The notes: a model not told the origin generated them from the sequence alone. DNA of 64,000 nt from Flavobacteriales bacterium (GCA_016716605.1 JADJWA010000001.1:2349342-2413341), one strand, 5' to 3'; counted from the stretch's first letter, positions 2,056-20,788 are shown. Translations and numbers: made by a program.

Positions 2056-2925
2056 ATGAGCGTGCTAGTCAACAAGAACTCGAAAGTGATCGTGCAAGGC
2101 TTCACCGGCAGCGAGGGCACCTTCCACGCTACGCAGATGATCGAGTATGGCACCAACGTGGTGGGCGGGGTAACGCCGGGCAAGGGCGGCCAGAAACACT
2201 TGGACCGTCCGGTTTTCGAGACCGTGAGCGAGGCAGTGAAGCAGACTGGCGCCAACGTGAGCATCATCTTCGTTCCGCCCGCCTTCGCTGCCGATGCGAT
2301 CATGGAAGCGGCTGAGGCCGGCATCAAGGTGATCGTGTGCATCACTGAAGGCATCCCCGTCAAGGACATGGTGGCCGCGCGCGAGTACCTGCACGGCAAG
2401 GATTGCACGCTCATCGGCCCCAACTGCCCGGGCGTGATCACGGCCGATGAATGCAAAGTGGGCATCATGCCGGGCTTCGTGTTCAAGAAGGGGAGCGTGG
2501 GCATCGTGAGCAAGAGCGGCACGCTCACCTACGAAGCGGCCGATCAAGTGGTGAAGGCCGGGCTCGGCATCACCACGGCCATCGGTATCGGTGGCGACCC
2601 GATCATCGGCACCACCACCCTGGAAGCCGTTCAGCTCTTCACCAACGACCCCGAGACCAAGGCCATCGTGATGATCGGCGAGATCGGCGGCGATCTGGAG
2701 ATCCAGGCCGCGCGGTGGATCAAGGCCAACTGCAAGAAGCCGGTGGTCGGCTTCATCGCGGGCGAGACCGCCCCGAAGGGACGCACCATGGGCCATGCAG
2801 GCGCCATCGTGAGTGGTGCCGATGAGAGCGCGGCGGCCAAGAAGGCGGTGATGCGCGAGTGCGGGATCCACGTGGTGGAGAGCCCGGCCAGCATCGGCGC
2901 CAAGGTGAAGGAGGTGCTGGGCTAG
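2056..2925 (+). CDS. sucD: Succinate--CoA ligase (ADP-forming) subunit alpha
   Basis: 289 aa with a CoA-binding N-terminus ([14 protein letters not shown]) and the conserved phospho-His loop region. The match is typical for SucD along its full length. Confidence 0.92.
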
Positions 2926-3015
2926 TCCAGCCTCGCATCGTGGTGCTGACGGCACGACACCTCAGCAGCGAATTGCCCTTGCAATGAGGGCGAGGAGGCA
3001 CCACCAAGCAGACCG

Positions 3016-3035
3016 ATTACCGGTTTTCTGGTATT
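3016..3035. promoter_or_regulatory. NarL/LuxR-type 7-2-7 inverted-repeat box (TACCGGT-TT-TCTGGTA), copy A
   Basis: Imperfect palindrome ATTACCGGTTTTCTGGTATT. It lies immediately upstream of the response-regulator gene. A near-identical copy is at 7589-7609. Confidence 0.5.
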
Positions 3036-3042
3036 TTCCCCG

Positions 3043-3747
3043 ATGCAGGCGGCATTGATTTTTGCCGCCATGCAGATGAAGATGAACACGTCGACCTTGC
3101 TGTTGGTGGATGATCAGTCGATGATGCTCGACGGCATTGAATCGCTGCTGGCCACGATGGATGAGGTGAAAGTGCTGGGCCGGTGCACTAACGGCAAGGA
3201 CGCGGTGGCCCAAGCGGAATTGCTGCGGCCGGACCTTGTGCTGATGGATGTGAACATGCCCGGCATGGACGGCATAGAGGCCACCAAGCGCCTGCTGAAG
3301 GTGAGCCCGTATAGCAAGGTGCTCATCTTGAGCATGTACGGCCACAAGGAGTTCGTTCTGGAGGTGATGGAAGCCGGTGCATGCGGCTACTTGCTGAAGA
3401 ATGCGGGGAAGCTTGAGCTCATGGAGGCCTTGCACATCGTGGCCACCGGCGGCAAGTACGTCGCGCGGGAATTGGCTGCGGTCATCGCGAACGGGGATCG
3501 CTTCAAGGACCGGCGTGGGGAGACACGCTATGGTGCCCTTTCCAAGCGCGAAGTGGACATCGTGCGATTGATCCTGCAGGAGCGCACTTCCCAGGAGATC
3601 GCCGAAACCCTATTCCTGAGCTCCGAAACGGTTGAGACGCACCGAAGGAACATTATGCATAAGCTTGACGTCCGCAATACCGCTGGCTTGGTGAAGTACG
3701 CCATGGAGCGGGGCTGGGGAAACAACAACGAGAGCACGAACCGATAA
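3043..3747 (+). CDS. LuxR/NarL-family response regulator (REC + HTH_LuxR)
   Basis: Receiver motifs LLLVDDQ and LVLMDVNMPGMDG are present, followed by a C-terminal LuxR HTH (LSKREVDIVRLILQERTSQEIAETLFLSSETVETHRRNIMHKL). Internal ATGs at 3070, 3076 and 3082 are alternative starts. Confidence 0.88.
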   Translation: MQAALIFAAMQMKMNTSTLLLVDDQSMMLDGIESLLATMDEVKVLGRCTNGKDAVAQAELLRPDLVLMDVNMPGMDGIEATKRLLKVSPYSKVLILSMYGHKEFVLEVMEAGACGYLLKNAGKLELMEALHIVATGGKYVARELAAVIANGDRFKDRRGETRYGALSKREVDIVRLILQERTSQEIAETLFLSSETVETHRRNIMHKLDVRNTAGLVKYAMERGWGNNNESTNR

Positions 3748-7696: not shown

Positions 7697-10600
7697 ATGT
7701 CCCCACTCTACGCACGCTCCTTCCGCATCCTGATCATCGCAGTTTGCCTCCTTAGCGCATGCGTGCCCGTGGGCACGGAGGACCACATGCCTGAACGGAC
7801 CCCTCTGAAGTCGGTCGCACAAGCAGAGAGGCCGACGCCGTGGCTTCCGATCCTGGGCGCGGCTTCCTTCCAGCCCGATGGCCCGCAACTGCCCGAGTTA
7901 GAAGGCGCGGGCAACGCGGCTATCCCCGAATACTGGTATGCCAGCATCCAAGCCGATATCGCCGCCAGCGAGTACCACATCAACTGGCGTGAGGACCTGG
8001 GAGCGTACCAGAGTCCCAACCGCGCTCAGGACCTGCGGATCACCTACCGCCACGATGGCTTCCGCGTGCAACCCCGTGTCGATGGCGAGGCATGGGAGGT
8101 GGAGCTCACCCTGGATCGCATCGGTAAGCCGGGCGATTGGTCAACCCCGTCTGACTCAGCATCCATGAGGGCTGAGGGTACTACGCTTGTCGTAGACCAT
8201 GGCAACTTCACCATGGATTACCAAAACCGCGAGGAGGGGATGCGGCAGAACTTCGTAGTAAAGGACCGGCCGCGGGGGTATGGCAGCCTGGAGGTGCGGA
8301 TCAGGGCGACCAGCGAGTTGAAGGCCATCGACCAAGGGGGGGGGCACATTGCTTTCTGCGAAGCTGTGAACAACGGCTCGAGTTACACGCCAAGCGTCTG
8401 GTACAAGGACTTGCATGTGTGGGACGCTCAAGGCGATACGCTCGAAGCTTCTATGCACTTGGAGGGGGAATACATCGCTGTTACTGTAGTGGAGGAAGAT
8501 GCGGCCTATCCGATCACCATTGACCCCATTGTGACAAGCGCACCATGGATCGCGAATGGCTTGGTGCATAATCAGCAGTTCGGCTTTAGTGCAGTAATGG
8601 ATGGCGACCTGAACGGAGATGGGTACGATGATGCCATCATTGGGGCACCTGGCTACGCGAGCAGCATCACGGCCGGTCGGGTGTATGTCTATCACGGGTC
8701 ATATAGCGGGCTGCCATCAATTGCAACACTTACGCTCAATCCCACGGCAGGTACGAGCTGGTTCGGGAACAGCGTGGCATATGCGGGCGATGTGAACAAT
8801 GATGGATTTGACGATGTGATTATCGGTGCGGAAGGCTACAGCAATGGCCAGGCCAATGAAGGGCGGGCGTACGTCTACTATGGATCTGCGGCTGGGCTTA
8901 TCACGGCAGCCCCATGGACCGTCGAGAGCAATCAAGCGGGAGCCAATCTCGGTTCTAGTGTTGCAAGAGCGGGCGATGTGAACAACGATGGTTATGACGA
9001 CATCATCATTGGTGCAGAGGGATACAGCAATGGCCAAGCTGGTGAAGGTCGCTCATTCGTTCACCTTGGGTCCGCTGCTGGTGTTCAAGCCGCAGCAATA
9101 TGGTTCGCAGAAAGCAACGTAGCCTCCTCTAGGTTTGGATGCAGCGTTTCCTCCGCTGGAGATGTGAATGGAGATGGGTTTGACGATGTGGTCATTGGGG
9201 CATTGCTTTATAACAACGGTCAAGCAGGTGAAGGAGGGGCGTTTGTCTTTCACGGCTCGGCTCTTGGGCCATCGGCGACCCCGAATTGGAGCACTGAATC
9301 CAACCAGGTGAACGCATACATGGGCATCGATGTGAGCTGGGCAGGTGATGTGAACGGCGATGGATTCGATGATATCCTCGTTGGGTCAAGTGGATTCAAC
9401 GGCGGGCAAGCAGGTGAGGGTCGCGCTTCCGTTTTTCACGGGTCGGCGTCTGGTCTATCGGCCTTGGCGTCATGGACAATGGAGACCAATGTCGTGTTTG
9501 ACAGTTTCTCAAGTACGGTTGAAGGCGTTGGTGATGTGAACAGCGATGGATTCGCCGATGTATTTGTCGGATCCATGACGAGCGGAAAGGCGCGGATATA
9601 CGGCGGCTCAGCTGCTGGTCTCATGATCGTGCCGATATGGTCCGAGCCTTTCGTTTACTCGAATTTCGGTGCAAGTGGTGGATCCACAGGCGATGTGAAC
9701 GGAGATGGGTTCCTCGACCTCATTATTGGCACGGGCATTTATCCACATTCTAACACGCACGGAACTGCATTTGTCTTCATGGGTGGCCTGAACGGGTTCG
9801 GCTCAACGCTGGCCTGGTTCGAGGATGCGAATCAGACGAATGCGGGTTTAGGATTTTCTGTCAGTAGCGCGGGCGATGTCAACGGTGATGGCTTCAGCGA
9901 TGTCATCATTGGTGCACCCAGTTATGACCTCGGTCAGCTCGACGAAGGAGTGGCGTTTCTCTATCACGGATCAGCGAATGGCCTGTCTGGCGCGCCGATT
10001 CGAATACTACAGGGAAATGTGGCGAATGCGCGGTTCGGCGGTTGGGTTTCCACGGCTGGTGACGTCAATGCGGATGGATTCGCTGATGTGATCATCGGGG
10101 CCCCGCACTGGAACGGCTTGCAGGGGCGTGTTTACCTGTACTTGGGCTCATCGGCAAGTGTTCCGCTGGTCGAATCGTGGACGTACTCACCGGCAGCTGG
10201 ATTGATCTATTTCGGATTAAGGGTCTCTGCTGCTGGCGACATTGATGGGGATGGGTACAGTGATTTTCTTGTGGGCACTTTACCTGGTGCCTTTTATGTA
10301 TTCGAAGGCACTTCCACAGGAGTCCCTGGCATACCGACCGTAGTTAGCGGAGCAGGAATCGCCTTGTCTGGGGCAGGCGATGTGAATGGGGATGGTTACA
10401 GTGACGTGATAGCAGGTTGCGGATATTGCGGTGTTCCGATCAACTCAGGGTCGGCTTCGGTTTATTTGGGGTCGCCTGCGGGTCTTTCGGCCGTTGCCTC
10501 CTGGACGAACACGATGGGGCAGATCAACTCGTACTTTGGGATAAGCGTGAACTCCGCTGGAGATGTGAATGGTGACGGATATTCAGATGTTGTCATTGGA

Positions 10601-13309
10601 GCTTACGGCTATAGCAATGGACAGGCTGGCGAAGGATCCGCCTTCATCTTCCATGGGTCTTCAACAGGGTTGCCGGTGAACCCTGATGTAAGCATCGAAT
10701 CGAACCAGAGTGGGGCAAGTTTAGGCTGGGGCGTTGCATGCGCAGGAGACGTGGATGGCGATGGTTATAGCGAAGTGGTGATCGGTGCCCCGTACTTTGA
10801 TGCAGGCCAGCTCAATGAAGGCGCCGTGTTCATCTATCGTGGTGGATCTGCAGGTCTTGCGACCACAGCATTCTGGTCGGCCGAAAGCAACCAGAGCAAT
10901 GCGAACTTCGGCTGGAGCGTCTCAAGCGCCGGCGATGTCAATGGCGATGGGTACAGCGACATCGTGACGGGCACTCCATTTTATGATCGTGGCCAGGCAG
11001 ATGAGGGTGCGGCATTCCTCTATCACGGCAGCGCCTCCACACTTGCCGCTCAGGAAAGTTGGACCGCAGAGTGCGACCAGGCGAATGCGCAATATGGTTG
11101 GAGTGTCGCTACTGCTGGTGATGTGAATGGCGATGGGTTCAGTGATGTTCTCGTCGGAGCACCGCTTTTCGATAATGGCGAAGTAGATGAGGGAAGGGCC
11201 TTCATCTACAATGGCTCGCTTGCCGGTCCTGCAAGTTCCCCATCGTGGATCAATGAAGGTAACCAAGCAGGTGCCCGGTATGGTCATTCTTTGGCTGGGG
11301 CGGGGGATGTCAATGGTGACGGCTACAGTGATGTCATCATCGGGGCACCCCAGTATGACAATGGAGAGGTCGACGAAGGGCGAGCGTATGTTTATCTGGG
11401 CAGTGCAAGCGGCGTCGCTTTGCCCGCTTCGTGGACCACCGAAAGCAATCAAACCGGTGCGCAGCTCGGCTATAGTGTCGCGAGCGCTGGTGATGTCAAT
11501 GGTGACGCCTTCAGCGAGGTCATAGTTGGGTCACCATACTACGACAACGGCCAGATTGATGAGGGTATGGTGCAAGTATATCATGGTTCGCTAGTCGGCC
11601 TTTCCATTCTGCCGAATTGGTCGGCAGAGAGCAACCAAGTTGGGGCTCGCTTCGGGGAGAGCGTGGCAGGAGTCGGTAGCTTGAACAACGACCCTTTTGG
11701 AGACGTGGTCATCGGCGCCCCGGGCTGGGATAATGGCCATGTTGATGAAGGCAAGGCATACGGCTATCACGGTTCCATCGTCGGGCTGGCGGCTATTCCT
11801 GCTTGGCAAAGTGAGGGGCAGACCACGAACAGGCGATTCGGGCAGAGCGTCTCAAGTGTTGGCGATGTGAACGGTGATGGATTCAATGAGGTCCTGATTG
11901 GCGGTGCGAACGGTTCTTGGATCTATCACGGTGGAACTGCGGGAATAAGCCTGAGCCACACTACAACTGCACCTGCGTTCACCAGCAATGCGAGTTTACC
12001 CTTCGCAGGAAACCGTTGCGCCGGCGCGGGCGATGTGAACGGCGATGGTTATAGCGACGTGGTAACAGGGGAAATCACTTTCGACAACCCTCAGGTTGAT
12101 GAAGGGAGAACGATTGTGTCGCACGGTTCTCCCGGAGGTATTGGCCTGCTCCCAAATTGGGCCATGGAAAGCAATCAGGCGGGATCCGGTTTTGGGATTG
12201 CGGCCAGCAGTGCAGGCGATGTGAACGGTGACGGTTATGGTGATGTGATCGTAGGCGCCCACCTTTACGACAATGGTCAAGCGGATGAGGGTAGGGCGTT
12301 AATCATCTACGGGAACAATGGGACCGGATTAAGGCACAATATGCGCCTATACAACAACGATCTTGCTGCACCAATTAGTTCCGCCAATACCACTTCCGGT
12401 ACATTCGGGGCAGGCCTCTACGCGAAGCCCTTCCTTGGGAGCCAGTTCGTCAGGAGCGTATGGGAAACAAGGCTTCACGGCCAGGCATTCAGCAGTGGAG
12501 CTGGTCGGATCACGAACAGCACTGCGTCTACGGCTCAGCAAGTTGCAAGCGGCTCATCGGGAACCGGCGGGACTGAACGAAAAGATGTGGTCACCAAGCT
12601 ATCGGGCGGGGGGCCAGTGAACGCCACCCGCGTTCGCGCACGGCTCCGATACAGCATGGCCACCGCCATCACGGGCCAGGTGTTCGGCCCGTGGCGCTAC
12701 ATGCCCGGCTTCCACGACGGCCACGGCACGCACAACAACATTCCGCTTCCAGTGGAGCTTTTGTACCAGCAGGCAACCTGCGAGAGCAAACAGGTGCTGC
12801 TCGAATGGGCCACCGGCAGCGAACTCAACAACAGCCACTTCGTGGTGGAGCGGAGCGAGGAGGGCACGGAGTGGAAGGACGTGAGCGTGGTGCCGGGTGC
12901 CGGAACCAGTTTGCAATTGATTGAATACCGGTGGACAGATGATGATCCCTCGAATGCACAAGTGGTTTACTACAGGCTACGCCAGGTTGATCTGGATGGG
13001 CGTGAGGAAGTCTTCCAGATGATTCCTGTGGCGAATTGCGGCGGTAGCAGCGCAGTGATCACGGCCTACCCGAATCCGGCAACAGACCTGCTGCACGTTT
13101 CCATCAACGTTGCCGAAGCCATCGACGGCGGTCGCTTGGAATTGCGCGATGCCATGGCGCGTCCGGTCTACAGCAAGATCCTATCGGTTGAGGCTGGGCA
13201 GAGCACCATCCAATTCGACATGAGCGGGCTGGCGTCCGGGTCCTACCTGCTTCAGCTTACCGATGCGCGCGGCGCCACCGTGGACAAGATCCACGTGGTG
13301 AAGCTGTGA
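7697..13309 (+). CDS. Giant FG-GAP-repeat (integrin-alpha-like) surface protein with T9SS type-A C-terminal sorting domain
   Basis: 1870 aa. The N-terminus is lipoprotein-like (LLSAC). There are about 21 repeats of …AGDVNGDG(F/Y)xDV(I/V)IGAP…G…EGRAYVY.GS. The C-terminus is …YPNPATDLLHV…GSYLLQLTD…KIHVVKL. Confidence 0.85.
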   Translation: MSPLYARSFRILIIAVCLLSACVPVGTEDHMPERTPLKSVAQAERPTPWLPILGAASFQPDGPQLPELEGAGNAAIPEYWYASIQADIAASEYHINWREDLGAYQSPNRAQDLRITYRHDGFRVQPRVDGEAWEVELTLDRIGKPGDWSTPSDSASMRAEGTTLVVDHGNFTMDYQNREEGMRQNFVVKDRPRGYGSLEVRIRATSELKAIDQGGGHIAFCEAVNNGSSYTPSVWYKDLHVWDAQGDTLEASMHLEGEYIAVTVVEEDAAYPITIDPIVTSAPWIANGLVHNQQFGFSAVMDGDLNGDGYDDAIIGAPGYASSITAGRVYVYHGSYSGLPSIATLTLNPTAGTSWFGNSVAYAGDVNNDGFDDVIIGAEGYSNGQANEGRAYVYYGSAAGLITAAPWTVESNQAGANLGSSVARAGDVNNDGYDDIIIGAEGYSNGQAGEGRSFVHLGSAAGVQAAAIWFAESNVASSRFGCSVSSAGDVNGDGFDDVVIGALLYNNGQAGEGGAFVFHGSALGPSATPNWSTESNQVNAYMGIDVSWAGDVNGDGFDDILVGSSGFNGGQAGEGRASVFHGSASGLSALASWTMETNVVFDSFSSTVEGVGDVNSDGFADVFVGSMTSGKARIYGGSAAGLMIVPIWSEPFVYSNFGASGGSTGDVNGDGFLDLIIGTGIYPHSNTHGTAFVFMGGLNGFGSTLAWFEDANQTNAGLGFSVSSAGDVNGDGFSDVIIGAPSYDLGQLDEGVAFLYHGSANGLSGAPIRILQGNVANARFGGWVSTAGDVNADGFADVIIGAPHWNGLQGRVYLYLGSSASVPLVESWTYSPAAGLIYFGLRVSAAGDIDGDGYSDFLVGTLPGAFYVFEGTSTGVPGIPTVVSGAGIALSGAGDVNGDGYSDVIAGCGYCGVPINSGSASVYLGSPAGLSAVASWTNTMGQINSYFGISVNSAGDVNGDGYSDVVIGAYGYSNGQAGEGSAFIFHGSSTGLPVNPDVSIESNQSGASLGWGVACAGDVDGDGYSEVVIGAPYFDAGQLNEGAVFIYRGGSAGLATTAFWSAESNQSNANFGWSVSSAGDVNGDGYSDIVTGTPFYDRGQADEGAAFLYHGSASTLAAQESWTAECDQANAQYGWSVATAGDVNGDGFSDVLVGAPLFDNGEVDEGRAFIYNGSLAGPASSPSWINEGNQAGARYGHSLAGAGDVNGDGYSDVIIGAPQYDNGEVDEGRAYVYLGSASGVALPASWTTESNQTGAQLGYSVASAGDVNGDAFSEVIVGSPYYDNGQIDEGMVQVYHGSLVGLSILPNWSAESNQVGARFGESVAGVGSLNNDPFGDVVIGAPGWDNGHVDEGKAYGYHGSIVGLAAIPAWQSEGQTTNRRFGQSVSSVGDVNGDGFNEVLIGGANGSWIYHGGTAGISLSHTTTAPAFTSNASLPFAGNRCAGAGDVNGDGYSDVVTGEITFDNPQVDEGRTIVSHGSPGGIGLLPNWAMESNQAGSGFGIAASSAGDVNGDGYGDVIVGAHLYDNGQADEGRALIIYGNNGTGLRHNMRLYNNDLAAPISSANTTSGTFGAGLYAKPFLGSQFVRSVWETRLHGQAFSSGAGRITNSTASTAQQVASGSSGTGGTERKDVVTKLSGGGPVNATRVRARLRYSMATAITGQVFGPWRYMPGFHDGHGTHNNIPLPVELLYQQATCESKQVLLEWATGSELNNSHFVVERSEEGTEWKDVSVVPGAGTSLQLIEYRWTDDDPSNAQVVYYRLRQVDLDGREEVFQMIPVANCGGSSAVITAYPNPATDLLHVSINVAEAIDGGRLELRDAMARPVYSKILSVEAGQSTIQFDMSGLASGSYLLQLTDARGATVDKIHVVKL
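8560..12330 (+). repeat. About 21 tandem FG-GAP units (roughly 180 bp / 60 aa each) inside the giant CDS
   Basis: The GDVNGDG-centred motif was counted in the translation. The units have diverged at the nucleotide level. Confidence 0.8.
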
Positions 13310-13348: not shown

Positions 13349-14374
13349 ATGGCCATGAACACACCCTTACGCGCTCTCTCATTCGCATTCGCGAGCGTCT
13401 GCGCGACAACCCTCGCCGCCCAGCCGACCTTGACCAGCTCCAACTACGTTCCGGTTTTCGGCATGGAGCGGGAGTATGAATGCGCCTCGATCGCTGATCC
13501 CGGTCCGGTCGGTGCCGATGCGATCTGGGATTTCTCCACCGTGGATCCGTTCTTCGACTGGGACATGAGCTATTACGATCACACGCAGGATCAGTACGCC
13601 GCCGATTTCCCCAACGCTACGCACGGCGGTAACGCAGTGCATGCCGATAACTTTTATTATGCCGCAAGTGCCACGGGCATCGAGATGCTCGGCTTCAAGT
13701 ACTACGACGCCGGGCTCAACCAGCCCTTCTTCGACCTGGCAACGGATCCCCTGCTGTTCCTGCCCTTCCCATGCGCATACGGCACAGCATGGGATGATGA
13801 TGGTGCGGGCACGTACCGTACTTATGAGACGGCCGGAGTGCGCACCTACGTGGCGAACATCACCGGAGAAGCAACCGGTTATGGCACGCTCATCCTGCCC
13901 AACGGCACCTACAATGATGTGCTGCGCGTGGATTGGGTGCGTTACATCAACGTGAACAACCTGGAGGTCGGCTACGAATGGACGATGTCATCGTTCTACC
14001 TGGCAGGTTTTCCGCTCCCTGTGGCGGAATGGGAGCGCAAGAAGACCTGGATCCTTGGAGAACTCCTGGATGATCCGTTGGAAGGCAAGTTCTGCTGGTT
14101 GCTCGATCCTGCGATGCAACTCGACAAGGATGAAGCGCCTTTCGCTTTCTCCGTCACCCCGAACCCGGCCGAGGACCAGGTCGTGGTGCAACTCGGGGTG
14201 GTGGACCCAGCCGCTGTGGTCAGCATCTCGGATGCGGCTGGCCGGTTGGTGATGCAGCGTCCGGCATCGGGCGATCGGTTGGTGCTGGACATTGCTGACC
14301 TGCAACCCGGCGCCTACCAGCTTTCCGTGATGACAGCCGGCACAGCGCAGGCGCGACAGTTCATCAAGCTGTAA
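13349..14374 (+). CDS. Hypothetical secreted protein with T9SS C-terminal sorting domain
   Basis: Signal peptide (MAMNTPLRALSFAFASVCATTLAAQ) and an aromatic-rich body. The C-terminus is …FSVTPNPAEDQVVVQL…GAYQLSVMT…QFIKL. Confidence 0.6.
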   Translation: MAMNTPLRALSFAFASVCATTLAAQPTLTSSNYVPVFGMEREYECASIADPGPVGADAIWDFSTVDPFFDWDMSYYDHTQDQYAADFPNATHGGNAVHADNFYYAASATGIEMLGFKYYDAGLNQPFFDLATDPLLFLPFPCAYGTAWDDDGAGTYRTYETAGVRTYVANITGEATGYGTLILPNGTYNDVLRVDWVRYINVNNLEVGYEWTMSSFYLAGFPLPVAEWERKKTWILGELLDDPLEGKFCWLLDPAMQLDKDEAPFAFSVTPNPAEDQVVVQLGVVDPAAVVSISDAAGRLVMQRPASGDRLVLDIADLQPGAYQLSVMTAGTAQARQFIKL

Positions 14375-14460
14375 GCAGTCCGGTCAGGACCGTGCGGGAG
14401 GCTCCCGCTCCTCGTCACGATCCGTAATGATCGGGCCCGATTCCCATGCACTTGCGGGCG

Positions 14461-14470
14461 CTACTTTCGC
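14461..14470 (+). promoter_or_regulatory. Candidate -7 promoter element CTACTTTCGC upstream of acnA
   Basis: Same motif as at 704 and 17603. It lies about 20 bp upstream of the acnA ATG. Confidence 0.4.
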
Positions 14471-14491
14471 GGCCGCAAATCCAGCCTATTG

Positions 14492-16765
14492 ATGAGCCAG
14501 ATCTTCGACTTGGAAATGATCCGCGCGGTCTATGGCCGCTACCCCGCCCGTATCGCCGCTGCCCGCAAAGCGGTTGGTAAGCCGCTCACCCTCTCGGAGA
14601 AGATCCTCTACGCCCATCTGTGGGACGGCGATGCGAAGACCGCCTTCGGCCGCGGCAAGGATTACGTCGATTTCGCGCCCGACCGTGTGGCCATGCAGGA
14701 CGCCACCGCGCAGATGGCCTTGCTGCAGTTCAGCACCACCGGCCGGAAGACCGTTGCTGTGCCCAGCACCGTGCATTGCGATCACCTGATCCAGGCGCGC
14801 GTGGGCGCGAAGCAGGATCTGCAGGACGCGCTGCTGAAGAGCAACGAGGTCTTCAACTTCCTCGAGAGCATCAGCAACAAATACGGCATCGGCTTCTGGA
14901 AGCCGGGCGCCGGCATCATCCACCAAGTGGTGCTGGAGCAGTACGCCTTCCCGGGCGGCATGATGATCGGCACCGACAGCCATACGGTGAACGCCGGTGG
15001 CCTGGGCATGATCGCCATCGGCGTGGGCGGTGCCGATGCCTGCGACGTGATGAGCGGCCTCGCTTGGGAACTCAAATGGCCCAAGCTCATCGGTGTGAAG
15101 CTCACCGGCAAGCTCAGCGGCTGGGCCAGTCCGAAGGATGTGATCCTGAAGGTGGCGGGCATCCTCACCGTGAAGGGCGGCACGGGCGCCATCGTGGAGT
15201 ATTTCGGCCCCGGCGCCGAGAGCATGAGCTGCACGGGCAAGGGCACCATTGCCAACATGGGCGCGGAGATCGGCGCCACCACCAGCACCTTCAGCTACGA
15301 CGACTCGATGAGCCGCTACCTGAAGGGAACCGGCCGCGCGGAAGTGGCCGCCATGGCCGATGCGATCAAGGAGCACCTGCAAGGCGATCCGGAGGTCTAT
15401 GCCGATCCGGCGAACTACTTCGATCAGGTCATCGAGATCAACCTGAGCGAATTGGAGCCCCATGTGAACGGTCCCTTCACGCCGGACCTGGCGCACCCCA
15501 TCAGCGAGTTCGCCGCAGCCGTGAAGAAGAACGGCTGGCCCGCCAAACTGGAAGTGGGCCTCATCGGATCATGCACCAACAGCAGCTACGAGGACCTTAC
15601 CCGCAGCGCCTCGCTCGCGCAGCAGGCCATCGACAAGAAGCTGAAGGCGAAGAGCGAATTCACCATCACGCCGGGCAGCGAAGTGGTCCGCTACACCGCT
15701 GAGCGCGATGGCCTGCTGAAGACCTTCGATGCCATGGGCGGCGTGGTGCTCGCGAATGCCTGCGGCCCATGCATCGGCCAGTGGGCGCGCCACACCGATG
15801 ACCCGAACCGGAAGAACTCGATCATCACCAGCTTCAACCGCAACTTCGCGAAGCGCAACGATGGCAATGCCAACACGCACGCCTTCGTCGCCAGTCCGGA
15901 GATCGTCACTGCGCTGGCCATCGCCGGAGATCTCACCTTCAATCCGCTCACCGATTCGCTGATCAACGAGGAGGGCGTGAGCGTGAAGCTTGATGAGCCG
16001 AAAGGCCTGGAGTTGCCCCCGAAGGGCTTCAGCGTGCAGGACCCCGGCTACAAGGCCCCCGCCGCCGATGGCAGCGCCGTGAAGGTGGAAGTGAAGCCCG
16101 ACAGCGAGCGCCTTCAGCTCCTCGAGCCCTTCCCCGCGTGGAACGGCAAGAACATCTCCGATGCCGTGGTGCTGATCAAGGCCAAGGGCAAGTGCACCAC
16201 CGACCATATCAGCATGGCCGGTCCTTGGCTGCGCTACCGCGGCCACTTGGACAACATCAGCAACAATACGCTGATCGGTGCCACCAACGCCTTCAATGGA
16301 GAGACCGACAAGGTGAAGAGCCAATTGACCGGCGAATACGGACCGGTACCGGCCACCCAGCGCGGCTACAAAGCCGCTGGCGTTCCCAGCATCATCGTGG
16401 GCGACCACAACTACGGCGAGGGCTCATCGCGTGAGCATGCCGCCATGCAGCCGCGCCACCTCGGCGTGAGCGCCGTACTGGTGAAGAGCTTCGCGCGCAT
16501 CCACGAGACCAATTTGAAGAAGCAGGGTATGCTCGCCCTCACCTTCGCCAACGAAGCCGATTACGACAAGATCCAGGAGGACGACCGCATCGACTTCACG
16601 GACCTCACCGCCTTCGCGCCGGGCAAGCCGCTGACCCTTGTCTTCAAGCACAAGGGCGGCAGCAGCGACACCATCGCCTGCAACCACACCTACAATGCCC
16701 AGCAGATCGAGTGGTTCAAGTCTGGCGGCGCGCTGAACATCATCCGGGCGCAGCAGAAGGGCTGA
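14492..16765 (+). CDS. acnA: Aconitate hydratase (aconitase A type)
   Basis: About 757 aa. The Fe-S ligand motifs IGSCTNSS and [10 protein letters not shown] and the [15 protein letters not shown] swivel-domain signature are present. The ORF table starts at TTG 14489; the ATG at 14492 is preferred. Confidence 0.92.
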
Positions 16766-17495: not shown

Positions 17496-17602
17496 GTGTT
17501 GTGATTTGTGTTTGGGCGGGCAATATAGGCTAGTCGTCTGTGCAGATGCACTGAGCTTGGGCACGGTGCTTGCCAAGCGCGCCCCCATCTTACGGGCACG
17601 CG

Positions 17603-17618
17603 CTACTTTCGCCCGCCT
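17603..17618 (+). promoter_or_regulatory. Candidate -7 promoter element (GCTACTTTCGCCCGCCTC)
   Basis: 16-mer identical to the one at 704-719. It lies 20 bp upstream of the OmpA-family gene ATG at 17639. Confidence 0.45.
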
Positions 17619-17638
17619 CGCATCTAAAGCACCAGCAC

Positions 17639-18802
17639 ATGCGCCATTTCACCATCGTTCTCGCATTCGCCGCCCTCAATTCCGCCTTGGCCCAGCCCAT
17701 CGACACCGCCCGCACCTGGGTGGTGAACGGCGACTTCGAGCAGTGGGAGGGCAAATCGAAGCTCAAGCGCCCGGGCGGCATCCAGTACGCCAAGGGCTGG
17801 AGCAGCGCCACCAGCAAGAAGGCCGACCTTTTCAGCGAGGTGGCCACGGTGGAGAGCACGGTGAGCACCCCAAAGAACTTCGCCGGCGAGCAGATGGCCC
17901 TGAGCGGCAGCAACTACGCCGGCGTGCGCTGGTGGAGCTACCAGAACAAGGAGCCGCGCACCTATATCCAGTCGCAGCTCAAGAGCAAGATGAAGAAGGA
18001 TTCGCTTTACTGCGTGCGCTTCTACGTGAGCCTCGGCGATCTGAGCAAGTACGCCACCGGCGAGCTCGGCGCCTGGTTCAGCAAGGACAAGACGGAGAAA
18101 GACGATCCCGCCAGCCTCACGTACGAGGTGACCGTGCCTAGCGTGCGCACCAAGATCTACAACGACATGTTCAGCTGGCAGGGCGTATGCGGTACCTACG
18201 AGAGCAAGGGCAACGAGGAGTGGATGATCATCGGGAACTTCGCCGCCACCGAGAAAACGGACAACACGAAGTCCAAGCGGCCCAAGGGCGAGACGCGTCC
18301 GCAGGTCTTCAGCGCCTACTACTACATCGACAATGTGGAGGTATATCCGGTGAAGAACCGCAATTCCTGCTCCTGCGAGCAGCTCAAGGATGCCGAGAGC
18401 GAGTACATCTTCAGCCGCAAGGGCGTCACCCCTCCCGGCCTGAAGCCGAAGGATCGGGCCGAGCGCCAGACCATTTATTTCAAGCGCTTCCAGCGCAACA
18501 TCGATCCCAGCATGGAGCCCTGGCTGGAGGACATCAAGAAGGCCATGACCGAGGATCCCGCCATGCGCATCGAGCTCACCGGCCACTTCGACGCCACCGA
18601 GATGGACCGCACGCGCATCCGCCCCGACCTGGCCGAACTCTCGAAGGAGCGCGCCGAGGCCGTTCGCGATGCGCTGGTGGAGATGGGCATCGATGCCGGG
18701 CGGATCACAGTGAGCCACAAGGATGCCAGCGAACCAGCCGATGACAGCGGCAACGAGGTGGGCATGAGCAAGAACCGGCGCGTTACCGTGGTGGTGAAGT
18801 AG
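17639..18802 (+). CDS. OmpA-family protein (N-terminal domain of unknown function + C-terminal OmpA peptidoglycan-binding domain)
   Basis: Signal peptide MRHFTIVLAFAALNSALAQ. The C-terminus (IELTGHFDATE…RAEAVRDALVEMGI…NRRVTVVVK) is OmpA_C-like. Confidence 0.75.
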   Translation: MRHFTIVLAFAALNSALAQPIDTARTWVVNGDFEQWEGKSKLKRPGGIQYAKGWSSATSKKADLFSEVATVESTVSTPKNFAGEQMALSGSNYAGVRWWSYQNKEPRTYIQSQLKSKMKKDSLYCVRFYVSLGDLSKYATGELGAWFSKDKTEKDDPASLTYEVTVPSVRTKIYNDMFSWQGVCGTYESKGNEEWMIIGNFAATEKTDNTKSKRPKGETRPQVFSAYYYIDNVEVYPVKNRNSCSCEQLKDAESEYIFSRKGVTPPGLKPKDRAERQTIYFKRFQRNIDPSMEPWLEDIKKAMTEDPAMRIELTGHFDATEMDRTRIRPDLAELSKERAEAVRDALVEMGIDAGRITVSHKDASEPADDSGNEVGMSKNRRVTVVVK

Positions 18803-18825
18803 GGGGCGTGAATGCCTTGGTGCGA

Positions 18826-18857
18826 GGTGCTAAGGTGCAGTGGTGCTAAGGTGCAAC
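18826..18857. repeat. Upstream arm of ~30-bp imperfect inverted repeat flanking the four-helix-bundle gene (tandem GGTGCTAAGGTGCA x2)
   Basis: The reverse complement of 19381-19412 matches this arm at 24 of 30 positions. Confidence 0.6.
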
Positions 18858-18931
18858 GGTGCGCTTGGCGTTGGCCGGGGACAGAAAGTCGTTCGCGGTG
18901 TGATTGCTAGCTTGCGTAAAAGCCCACGCAC

Positions 18932-19288
18932 ATGGCAGCCTTCAAGGACTTCGAGGAGATCGTCGCTTGGCAACGAGCAATCGACCTCAGTGCTTCGGTC
19001 TACCCACGGTTCAAAGACCATCGGGATTTCGGTTTCCGAGACCAGATCCTTCGGGCCAGTGTTTCCGTGGCGAACAACATCGCCGAGGGATTCAACAGCG
19101 GCTCGAACCGGAAGTTCCGCTTTTACCTGACCATTGCCAGAAGCTCGTGCGATGAAGTGCGTTCGATGGTGATCCTGGCCGAGCGGATCGGTTACTTGAA
19201 GAGGGAAGAGGTCGAGGTGCTTCGGACGGAGTGCATGCGGTTGAACGGAACCATCCTTTCGCTGATCAAATCCATGCGGGTGGACTGA
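18932..19288 (+). CDS. Four helix bundle protein (PF05635/TIGR02436; 23S-rRNA-IVS protein / DGR Avd-like)
   Basis: 118 aa with characteristic N- and C-terminal motifs (…FEEIVAWQRAIDL…ILRASVSVANNIAEGF…FYLTIARSSCDEV…). This family is highly recognisable in Bacteroidota. Confidence 0.85.
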   Translation: MAAFKDFEEIVAWQRAIDLSASVYPRFKDHRDFGFRDQILRASVSVANNIAEGFNSGSNRKFRFYLTIARSSCDEVRSMVILAERIGYLKREEVEVLRTECMRLNGTILSLIKSMRVD

Positions 19289-19380
19289 ATCAAGAGCTGG
19301 GCGGAGTGACTGGAGCCTTTGGCATATTAAGCTGGCTGGCCCTGATGAACGAATAGGATTAAGGCCCATCCAAGGCCGTT

Positions 19381-19412
19381 GTGCACCTTGGCACCCTGGC
19401 ACCTTGGCACTG
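19381..19412. repeat. Downstream arm of inverted repeat (GTGCACCTTGGCACCCTGGCACCTTGGCAC; 8-bp tandem units)
   Basis: Reverse complement of the 18826-18857 arm. It overlaps the 5' region of the next gene. Confidence 0.6.
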
Positions 19413-19423
19413 GAGCACCGTAC

Positions 19424-20788
19424 ATGAGCACGAAGAACGACCCCAAGGTCATCCGCGCATGGACCTTCTACGATTGGGCCAACTCAGTCTATTCGCTCAC
19501 GATCACGAGCGCGGTGTTCCCGATCTTCTATGCGGCCATCACCAAAGGCGAGGAAGGGGAAGATCTGGTGCTGAACAGCGCCATCGGCATCCCTGCTCAG
19601 TCGCTCTATTCGTATGCCCTCTCGGCGGGCTTCCTGATCGTGGCGGTGATCGCCCCCTTGCTCAGCGGCATCGCCGACAGCCGCGGCAACAAGCTCGCAT
19701 TCCTCAAGGGGTTCTGCTACCTCGGCGCAATGTCCTGCGCGGGCCTGGCTTTCTTCACCCTCGAAGGCATTTGGTGGGGCCTGGGCCTTGTGGCGCTTGC
19801 CTGCATCGGCTTCAGTGGCAGCCTCGTGTTCTACGATGCCTTCCTTGTTGATATCGCCGGCAAGGACCAACACGACAAGGTGAGCGCGCGCGGTTACACC
19901 ATGGGCTACATCGGTAGCGTGATCCTGCTCGTCATCAACCTGCTCATGGTGATGAAGCCCGATTGGTTCTCCCTGCCGAAGAGCATCACCATCGGCGATG
20001 TGACATACGGCGGCGTGCCAGCACGGGTCACCTTCATCACGGTCGGCCTCTGGTGGGCGGGCTTCGCGCAGATCGCTTTCCGTCGCCTGCCCAAGCGCAC
20101 GCCCGCAGCCGATGGCCGCGATGGCGTGCTCTGGAGCGGCTACCGTGAATTGCGCAAGGTGTGGCGGCAGCTCATGTCCACAGTAAGGCTGAAGCGCTAC
20201 CTGCTGGCCTTCTTCGTCTTCAACATGGGCATCCAAACGGTGATGTACCTCGCCGTGATCTTCGCCGAGCACGAGATCAAGACCGTGGACGAGTACGGTG
20301 AAGTGGCACCCATTGCACCGGAGAGCCTCATCATCAGCATCCTTCTCATCCAGCTGGTCGCGGCCCTCGGTGCTGCGCTCTTCGTGCGGCTCAGCGCGCG
20401 CTTCGGGAACATCCGCGCCCTGGCCATCGGCGTGGCGGTGTGGGTAGGCATCTGCACGGCCGCCTACTTCACGCGGTGGACGCATGAGTTCTACATCCTG
20501 GCAAGCTGCGTGGGCCTGGTGATGGGCGGTTGCCAAGCACTGGCCCGCAGCACCTACGCCAAGTTCCTGCCAGAAACGAATGACACGGCCTCCTACTTCA
20601 GTTTCTACGACGTGAGCTACTACGTGGGCACTGTGCTGGGCACCATGATCTTCGGCGTGGTGTTCCAGCTCACCAATGACCTGCGCAACACGGCGATCGC
20701 GTTGTGCACCTTCTTCATCCTAGGCCTTGTGTTACTGCTGCGCGTGCCGAAGGAGGAGGTGCGAATCTCAGAGGCCGGAGTGGCCTGA
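19424..20788 (+). CDS. MFS transporter, UMF1/Atg22-like family
   Basis: About 454 aa from MSTKND, with 12 predicted TM segments. The N-terminal region (…WTFYDWANSVYSLTITSAVFPIFY…) is typical of bacterial Atg22-like MFS permeases. Confidence 0.75.
   Translation: MSTKNDPKVIRAWTFYDWANSVYSLTITSAVFPIFYAAITKGEEGEDLVLNSAIGIPAQSLYSYALSAGFLIVAVIAPLLSGIADSRGNKLAFLKGFCYLGAMSCAGLAFFTLEGIWWGLGLVALACIGFSGSLVFYDAFLVDIAGKDQHDKVSARGYTMGYIGSVILLVINLLMVMKPDWFSLPKSITIGDVTYGGVPARVTFITVGLWWAGFAQIAFRRLPKRTPAADGRDGVLWSGYRELRKVWRQLMSTVRLKRYLLAFFVFNMGIQTVMYLAVIFAEHEIKTVDEYGEVAPIAPESLIISILLIQLVAALGAALFVRLSARFGNIRALAIGVAVWVGICTAAYFTRWTHEFYILASCVGLVMGGCQALARSTYAKFLPETNDTASYFSFYDVSYYVGTVLGTMIFGVVFQLTNDLRNTAIALCTFFILGLVLLLRVPKEEVRISEAGVA

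Follow-up and report, generated by a model that had tools for sequence, protein, structure and literature searches.

A four-helix-bundle gene between inverted arrays of short tandem units forms an insertion cassette at an OmpA-MFS gene junction in Flavobacteriales

Within a 64,000-nucleotide (nt) stretch of DNA from a Flavobacteriales bacterium (JADJWA010000001.1:2349342-2413341 of GCA_016716605.1; the whole stretch is called the window throughout), a gene coding for a four-helix-bundle (4HB) protein of family PF05635 lies between two mutually inverted arrays, or arms, of tandem units of about 8 nt. The block formed by gene and arms separates an OmpA-like gene from a gene of the major facilitator superfamily (MFS), and comparison with relatives that lack it supports the conclusion that positions 18805-19430 act as a single insertion unit. 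The arm-gene-arm layout is general for the gene family and occurs in at least four bacterial phyla. By analogy with the intervening sequences (IVSs) of 23S rRNA, we propose, with a probability of roughly one half, that the block is an IVS-type cassette residing in an mRNA operon, whose arms would pair in read-through RNA and form a putative substrate of RNase III.

Results

A four-helix-bundle gene between inverted arrays

The features of the locus are listed below; homologous loci carry L numbers.

17570-18802, + strand: upstream host gene coding for an OmpA-domain protein (domain match)
18805-19430, + strand: whole cassette block, 626 nt; blastn homology to L026 ends at 18804 and restarts at 19431
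18819-18865, + strand: left arm array, G-rich, six GGTGCnnn units in tandem, five of them 8 nt long and one 7 nt
18866-18876, + strand: inward continuation of the left arm without repeats; pairs with 19363-19379 in the predicted minimum free energy (MFE) structure
18907-18917, + strand: CTAGCTTGCGT, including TAGCTTGC, candidate internal promoter, 14 nt 5' of the 4HB ATG
18932-19288, + strand: 4HB gene, 118 amino acids (aa); PF05635 / TIGR02436; 'NIAEG' motif
19289-19348, + strand: remnant of a decayed Trp-rich C-terminal tail (..SWAPWLVPFASWVGWV in L001; 67% identity to L001)
19363-19381, + strand: AAGGCCCATCCAAGGCCGT, non-repetitive inner part of the right arm, paired in MFE structures; 80% identity to L001
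19382-19422, + strand: right arm array, C-rich, five tandem nnnGCACC units, inverse of the left array
19424-20788, + strand: downstream host gene coding for an Atg22-like MFS transporter (domain match)

A first-pass annotation had placed a PF05635-type gene at 18932-19288 between the OmpA-like and MFS genes, and the domain matches agree. The 4HB protein matches PF05635 (23S_rRNA_IVP; E = 9.3e-28, 97 bits, cut-off 33.8) and TIGR02436 'four helix bundle protein' (1e-27, 96.5 bits, cut-off 24), and alignment of 4HB proteins reveals the conserved motif ..RAsvSvanNIAEG... It also matches by sequence the PDB entries 2GSC (E = 7.6e-12) and 2RLD, in each of which five chains are deposited; 2GSC has been described as a homopentamer (PMC4990558).

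The annotation had further described two arms of 30 nt matching at 24 positions, and hand alignment returned the same 24/30, the arms being reverse-complementary on exact alignment. Its view of each arm as a tandem of short units holds as well, but an 8-nt period describes the arms better than the 14- and 12-nt units, each present twice, that it had given. The left array reads GGTGCGA GGTGCTAA GGTGCAGT GGTGCTAA GGTGCAAC GGTGCGCT, and the right array terminates 1 nt 5' of the MFS start codon (19424). Tandem Repeats Finder (TRF) detected period 8 (4.8 copies) and period 16 (2.3 copies) in the left arm and period 8 (3.5 copies) in the right arm, while a repeat search paired 18827-18855 with 19382-19410 (29 nt, 83% complementary) and, as an extended pair, 18826-18862 with 19383-19419 (37 nt, 73% complementary).

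Short G+C-rich repeats are common at 61% G+C, and the arm match could in principle be due to chance or to generic repeats of the repetitive extragenic palindromic (REP) type unrelated to the gene, as the first-pass annotation had allowed. However, the motif GGTGCYAAGGTGC, allowing at most one mismatch, occurs five times in the 64 kb, every time within the arms, where 0.32 occurrences are expected and none of 100 shuffles reached five. The arms are the sole period-8 arrays with at least three copies at a TRF score of at least 36 in the window, which contains no other array of period 5 to 9 with a comparable score, no second 4HB gene and no further arm copies. The inverted-repeat score of the window locus (36) was reached by none of 500 random pseudo-gene positions. 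The layout moreover recurs at homologous genes in four phyla, and the arrays are conserved above neutral spacers (see below). On the motif count and the random-position control we rejected the chance and REP-like reading, which we hold to be wrong with near certainty.

The cassette is present or absent as one piece at the OmpA-MFS junction

The gene order OmpA-4HB-MFS of the window recurs at L001-L004, L034, L035, L037 and L038, and the OmpA-like gene directly adjoins the MFS gene at L026 (neighbours 84-86% identical to those of the window), L027-L033, L039 and L040. In blastn comparison with the closest empty relative, L026, 90 nt (2418-2507) stand where the window has 626 nt. Likewise, the filled locus L038 and the empty locus L039, whose flanks are 92-94% identical, differ by having 612 nt and 90 nt, respectively, between the two genes. 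The arms lie within 15 nt (left) and 8 nt (right) of the boundaries between filled and empty alleles. The first-pass annotation had suggested a self-contained insertion or processing cassette akin to stem-bounded rRNA IVSs and had advised a search for empty sites. That suggestion is borne out: empty sites occur among close relatives (L026, L039), filled and empty alleles at orthologous junctions differ by 18805-19430, cassettes of other genera are homologous exactly arm to arm in different surroundings, and a 23S rRNA IVS (L108) contains a homologous open reading frame (ORF) between arms built alike.

The empty sites have a 10-17-bp GC-rich hairpin after the OmpA-like gene, which a strict terminator scan does not call, and a TAC(C/A)TTG box at a distance of 8-15 nt from the MFS ATG that it precedes. 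Both are absent from the window, L001, L002, L004 and L038, while the box is retained in L003 and L035; after the OmpA-like stop codon, the fold of the window shows no more than a 5-bp stem that includes G-U pairs (18803-18818). The 90 nt of the empty alleles L026 and L039 are thus unrelated sequence (hairpin plus -7-like box) and not the site minus the element. Compared with L026 and L039, the window junction has neither a target-site duplication nor a clean excision scar, and no direct repeat was seen flanking the window arms. Scans of the window region and the empty site for sigma-70 promoters and strict terminators returned nothing, with a tool that lacks Bacteroidota promoters.

Filled and empty loci are intermingled on the MFS tree, whereas the 4HB proteins cluster roughly as their hosts. 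The window-type cassette was found solely at the OmpA-MFS junction. This pattern fits a cassette that has long been inherited vertically and has repeatedly been lost or been exchanged by allele replacement; site-specific re-insertion is a possible alternative history.

The hairpins of the empty sites (L026 2430-2468, L030, L031, L032 and L039; e.g. GGAAGGCGCC..GGCGCCTTCC) have AAGG..CCTT in common with the arm units of filled alleles, and the -7-like box before the MFS gene at empty sites has ACCTT in common with arm units. The AAGG..CCTT sharing could reflect insertion into the hairpin loop, or arms that collapsed to a short hairpin. A repeat unit taken over from the target site is one possible reading; however, the units of a cassette stay the same in contexts that are unrelated. 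At L036 (1431-2501), the OmpA-MFS junction contains a different insert of ~1 kb without a 4HB gene, read as coding for small membrane proteins, one of them with a TM2-like GIHRFYLG motif. The OmpA-MFS junction appears to be variable, or a place where inserts land repeatedly.

Protein, arrays and a promoter-like box are constrained in the window lineage

The 4HB genes of the window and L001 are separated by a dS of ~1.3 with a dN/dS of 0.046, and 62% of synonymous sites differ. Spacers are 31-47% identical between the two loci. In contrast, the left array is 68% identical with invariant GGTGC cores, its neighbouring spacers being at 44%, the right array is 79% identical, and the CTAGCTTGCGT box is identical at 11/11 positions between flanking spacers at 44-47%. 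The innermost spacer pair of the arms has changed from TAA:TTG to CAT:ATG, which includes at least one full compensatory change from A-U to U-A. Conservation above the neutral level indicates that protein, arrays and promoter-like box are all functional in the window lineage. Here the cassette appears to have been inherited vertically for a long time, and purifying selection acts on its protein, arrays and box. The element TAGCTTGC resembles TAnnTTTG, the Bacteroidota -7 promoter box, and may serve the 4HB gene as an internal promoter.

A Trp/Pro-rich 4HB tail of ~19 aa (..APWLVPxASWLG..), absent from typical family members, is present in L001 (492-551), L002, L003, L004, L037 and L038. It has been lost in the window, which has TGA at 19286-19288 and two more in-frame stops, and has decayed at L034 and L035 too. 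The 4HB gene is frameshifted at L004 (3001-3353) and at L038 (~2010-2400, where the ATG is missing as well), and both arrays are kept; these are either decaying cassettes or assembly errors.

The arm-gene-arm layout recurs across the family

A scan of one genome per species yielded 25 loci with relatives of the gene, all in Bacteroidota-type metagenome-assembled genomes (MAGs) or genomes, and tblastn against plasmids added loci from Cyanobacteriota, Gemmatimonadota and Riemerella as well as the Azospirillum IVS L108. The arm-alignment score was at least 27 at 26 of 42 homologous loci, compared to 15 of 500 random positions (3%), and at least 36 at 18 of the 42, compared to none of the 500. Most of the 25 scanned loci have tandem 7-8-nt units 5' of the gene and their reverse complement 3' of it. 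Across the family, 13 loci have a unit period of 7 and 12 a period of 8, with a TRF median of 4.4 units per arm. The G-rich arm comes first in 26/26 strong loci; as this order is identical on both strands, the polarity belongs to the inverted repeat itself and does not depend on how the gene is oriented. Unit sequence varies by cassette lineage, and both arms of one cassette have the same unit. Examples are AGTCGAC, GACTTTC, GGAGTGCC, GTCTTGCG, GTGTGAAT and GGTGTTTA among the genome-scan loci, and GGGAACA/TGTTCCC, GGGAAAA/TTTTCCC, AGGGTGT/ACACCCT, CAGGAGT, GGCAGAA/TTCTGCC, GGGCAGGA/CTCCTGCC and GGTTCAAG/CTTGAACC among the plasmid loci.

By our tally, the cassette gene is co-oriented with both neighbours in ~11 of 13-14 independent annotated contexts. 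At the MAG loci, ~85% of upstream neighbours called by an error-prone home-made ORF caller are on the same strand, modestly above the genome background. The arms of compact cyanobacterial cassettes lie 1-33 nt from start and stop codons. At three Flavobacteriales MAG loci (L006, L007 and L009; ~2750-3650) an AAGTCGG array, 30 nt and a GACTT array precede the 4HB gene, and the same series follows it before a truncated second copy, so that each gene lies between two local array hairpins and not within one long-range stem.

The arms could be terminal inverted repeats of a mobile DNA element, RAYT- or foldback-like, an RNA stem then being a by-product that allows the element to persist within rRNA and operons. 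Like cassettes occupy unrelated contexts in different genera with homology stopping at the arms: L111 and L116 are homologous exactly arm to arm in unrelated contexts, and L121 and L119 match in ORF and arm units. Inverted array pairs without an ORF exist on cyanobacterial plasmids, and at L124 (209-505; Nostoc sp. ATCC 53789 pNsp_b) a 297-nt ORF-less GGGAAAG/CTTTCCC element with a possible flanking 4-nt ATTA duplication lies inside the 4HB ORF, which is intact at L106 and at L124 is annotated as a pair of 'four helix bundle protein' fragments. Filled loci are scattered among empty ones on the host tree, and cassettes are found within cas operons, conjugation operons and rRNA (PMC3936711, PMC11270868). 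However, neither a transposase nor a nuclease motif can be recognised in the 118-aa helical bundle, and the neighbours that were scanned include no transposase. The window junction shows neither target duplication nor scar, and the restriction of the window-type cassette to one junction, with 4HB groups that approximate MFS-tree clades, fits vertical inheritance. The unit sequences are also too divergent between cassettes for one trans-acting enzyme. We regard transposon ends as a serious but less probable explanation of the arms.

REP-associated tyrosine transposase (RAYT) genes flanked by inverted REP sequences (RAYT/REPIN systems) offer one precedent for such an element. As in that system, a small single gene is bracketed by an inverted short repeat, and ORF-less inverted pairs occur elsewhere in some genomes (cyanobacterial plasmids). 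The cassette differs in coding for a 4HB protein and not an HUH/Y1 transposase, in having 7-8-nt tandem arrays where RAYTs have single palindromes of ~35 nt, and in that the 64-kb window contains no dispersed copies of its repeats. In Drosophila, foldback (FB) transposons have long inverted termini made of tandem short units around a centre with or without ORFs. The likeness of the window cassette to these eukaryotic elements is a structural analogy only, as they are far larger and unrelated in sequence. No match to the 4HB protein was obtained by tblastn against a phage collection, and PADLOC returned no defence-system match.

On plasmid gamma of Nostoc PCC 7120 (L121; 12960-15540), the left arm (12997-13033) is separated from the 4HB ORF by an ISL3 transposase element. 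A perfect 18-bp unique inverted repeat, GGCAACTTTTGGTGATCT / AGATCACCAAAAGTTGCC, stands outside the heptamer arrays of this locus and may be a pre-existing hairpin that the cassette entered. Arrayed cassettes also lie between co-directional cas genes, as cas6-4HB-cas4 at L110 (Pseudanabaena) and as cmr2-4HB-cmr3 at L118 (Picosynechococcus). L110 is atypical in that the gene is preceded by 17 AAAGCTA units and followed by 10 AAAGCCA units in direct orientation, with an inverse array further upstream. PF05635 genes in cas loci have been noted before as possibly CRISPR-associated (PMC3936711); their arrays suggest that they are cassette insertions.

Predicted pairing of the arms and a cassette within 23S rRNA

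Folding of 18803-19430 paired 18819-18876 with 19363-19419 (z = -5.4), in agreement with the first-pass annotation, which had anticipated a long stem between the two arms. When folded alone, the arms formed 50 inter-arm pairs at -83.3 kcal/mol, compared to -53.5 +/- 3.4 with the right arm shuffled. Since RNAduplex on flanks of 220 x 280 nt gave inflated, uninformative energies, local alignment of the arms and arm-only hairpin folds were used instead. The window pairing continues past the repeats into unique sequence, and likewise at L121. On the sense strand the window hairpin is 14 kcal/mol more stable than on the antisense strand, as is that of the rRNA IVS at L108, by 17.5 kcal/mol.

L108, from Azospirillum lipoferum plasmid p2, is genuine bacterial large-subunit (LSU)/23S rRNA (Rfam, 2165 bits). 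A homologous ORF interrupts its helix-45 region between arms of 7-nt units (CAGAGGA CGGATGA... / ...TCCGTCC TCTGTCT). This IVS of ~470 nt (1147-1616; A. lipoferum 4B AZO_p2, NC_016586.1 ~14335-14804) is unannotated, and its PF05635-type ORF has no obvious in-frame start codon. At the window locus itself, 18000-20000 contains no match to rRNA or any other Rfam family at E <= 1 except a chance 15-bit RsmY match upstream, and no Rfam family reached its gathering score in 20 homologous loci.

The 23S IVSs of Leptospira, Coxiella burnetii ('S23p'), Brucella and Xanthomonas have the PF05635 ORF in common with the window cassette. The ORF-bearing Coxiella IVS has a 28-bp terminal stem and is excised by RNase III without religation (PMC4990558). 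Both kinds of element end in a complementary stem (28 bp in Coxiella, ~50 bp predicted for the window), are of similar size (428-444 nt compared to 626 nt) and are patchily distributed among relatives, and the L108 arms consist of 7-nt tandem units just like those of cassettes outside rRNA. In contrast to the IVSs, the window cassette lies between two protein-coding genes and not in an rRNA gene, has explicit 8-nt tandem arms, which the accessible IVS literature does not mention, has a conserved internal promoter-like box, and codes for a protein under strong purifying selection, whereas the ORF of Coxiella has been reported to be in decay and not translated.

Other features of the window

About nine consecutive paralogous genes (28121-50973, + strand) code for proteins of ~730-900 aa, mutually 67-75% identical over 450-840 nt, with SprB repeat, DUF11, DUF7619 and Por_Secre_tail (type IX secretion system, T9SS, sorting) domains. 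Imperfect repeats with a period of ~186 nt, 62-80% identical, occupy ~8780-12070 in what is apparently one long coding region for a repetitive-domain protein.

Discussion

We propose that the window cassette belongs to the same class of element as the ORF-bearing 23S IVSs, which we consider to be the same element at another site. The anatomy shared with a true rRNA IVS, together with the published behaviour of IVSs, leads to an RNA-level model. At the OmpA-MFS junction the cassette replaced a spacer that, in other relatives, contains a hairpin and a putative promoter, so that transcription from the OmpA-like gene probably continues through the cassette into the MFS gene. In such a read-through transcript the arms are predicted to form a helix of ~50 bp. 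By analogy with the IVSs, RNase III would cut this helix, free a 4HB RNA with base-paired ends and part the two host messages. Any unit could pair with any unit of the opposite arm, and because units are interchangeable, a stem whose length changed through slippage in either array would still form; this tolerance may explain why the arms are tandem repeats. In favour of the model count the arms abutting host stop and start codons, the loss of the hairpin and putative promoter between the host genes, the prevailing co-orientation with both neighbours, the stem that continues into unique sequence, the compensatory change and the greater sense-strand stability in the window and L108. The compact cyanobacterial cassettes leave no room for an internal promoter, which would place both arms on the host transcript.

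Several observations weigh against this model. The TAGCTTGC box lies inside the arms, and a 4HB transcript that started mainly from it would not include the left arm. The sense strand forms the more stable hairpin at only 13 of 26 loci, and the arm-alignment mismatches comprise 29 G-U and 26 A-C, hence no wobble excess, while the remaining 81 match the random 1:1:4 spectrum; selection on sense-RNA pairing is thus undetectable family-wide. The need for a stem alone leaves the 7- or 8-nt period, the 5-nt core with variable spacers and the G-first polarity unexplained. Survival within an rRNA helix could also be a by-product of inverted ends kept for another reason.

We hold a second explanation as a tentative possibility of clearly lower probability: the 4HB oligomer would bind the arrays of its own cassette, as RNA or as double-stranded DNA, with each subunit contacting one unit of 7-8 nt. 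It would thereby regulate its own expression, or package or protect the locus or transcript that encodes it, and arm complementarity would be secondary. Avd is a nucleic-acid-binding relative of the 4HB proteins, and small repressors, among them omega of pSM19035, bind arrays of 7-bp heptad operators. Each unit combines an invariant 5-nt core with variable 2-3-nt spacers, the period is limited to 7 or 8 across four phyla, and the median of 4.4 units per arm is near the five chains deposited for 2GSC and for 2RLD. The random, not wobble-biased, mismatch spectrum and the operator-like position of the left array 5' of the conserved promoter-like box also fit. Protein type tracks unit type across genera, and both differ between cassettes of one strain, Nostoc ATCC 53789, although this link equally fits common descent of whole cassettes. 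Against binding as the primary function, the arms also pair through non-repetitive sequence, a single-strand binder would be unable to read both G-rich and C-rich arrays on one RNA, and ORF-less inverted arrays exist without an adjacent 4HB gene.

Such binding might have further targets elsewhere. Heptamer tandem repeats (short tandemly repeated repetitive sequences, STRR; TAACTGA-type) of unknown function occur in cyanobacteria, Beggiatoaceae and some Bacteroidetes (PMC4679880), and the binding partner of the cyanobacterial repeats is explicitly unknown (10.1101/2022.06.06.494920), which would be consistent with a 4HB protein as the binder. Like the cassette arms, which resemble them, they are intergenic tandem 7-nt units by start codons in the same phyla. 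In contrast, they have been published as direct arrays upstream of many kinds of gene, and the published accounts examined report neither a link to PF05635 nor an inverted partner array.

The first-pass annotation had also raised diversity-generating retroelements (DGRs), in which the 4HB protein would be an Avd accessory factor of a DGR or its remnant. PF05635 is a Pfam family that resembles Avd (PMC10053308), with a homologous four-helix-bundle fold and pentameric relatives (PDB 2GSC). Unlike in a DGR, however, no reverse transcriptase (RT), template repeat (TR) or variable repeat (VR) was found in the window, and the direct neighbours of the gene are the OmpA-like and MFS genes. A tblastn search of the window with RT gave nothing below E = 1.5, no RT domain was detected in ten Pfam-scanned large window ORFs, and self-blastn of the window revealed no TR/VR-like repeat pair involving 18-20 kb. 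We therefore rejected a DGR origin for this locus, which is highly improbable.

Pairing of the arms in read-through RNA, binding of the arrays by the 4HB protein and mobility through the arms are not mutually exclusive. We can envisage a broader scheme, conjectural and rather improbable as a whole, in which PF05635 proteins would be sequence-reading array binders with one unit per pentamer subunit. The cassettes would then be autonomous members of an ancient mobile family spanning ORF-less plasmid hairpins, rRNA IVSs and the orphan 4HB genes of Bacteroidota and Cyanobacteria, and DGR Avd a domesticated offshoot.

Stem-bounded IVSs with a PF05635 ORF, copies in cas loci, copies in rRNA insertions of the candidate phyla radiation (CPR; PMC11270868), the kinship with Avd and the heptamer repeats were already known. 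In the searchable full-text literature we found no description of such cassettes outside rRNA, or of fixed-polarity arms of 7-8-nt tandem units.

The window protein is matched by 9,621 cluster representatives at 50% identity, which makes PF05635 a very large family; its function is unknown, and it has been studied only in the contexts of rRNA IVSs and DGRs. If the cassette is the native form of the family, the rRNA IVS would be one special landing site of a general element. The 4HB genes found in CRISPR-cas and conjugation operons would then probably be insertions and not accessory subunits, the 7-8-nt arrays would become candidate ligands for a family with solved structures, and the cyanobacterial heptamer repeats would gain a testable candidate for their binding partner. 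For the host, the presence of the cassette means a rewired operon, in which a hairpin and a putative promoter between two genes have been swapped for what is predicted to be a long double-stranded RNA structure.

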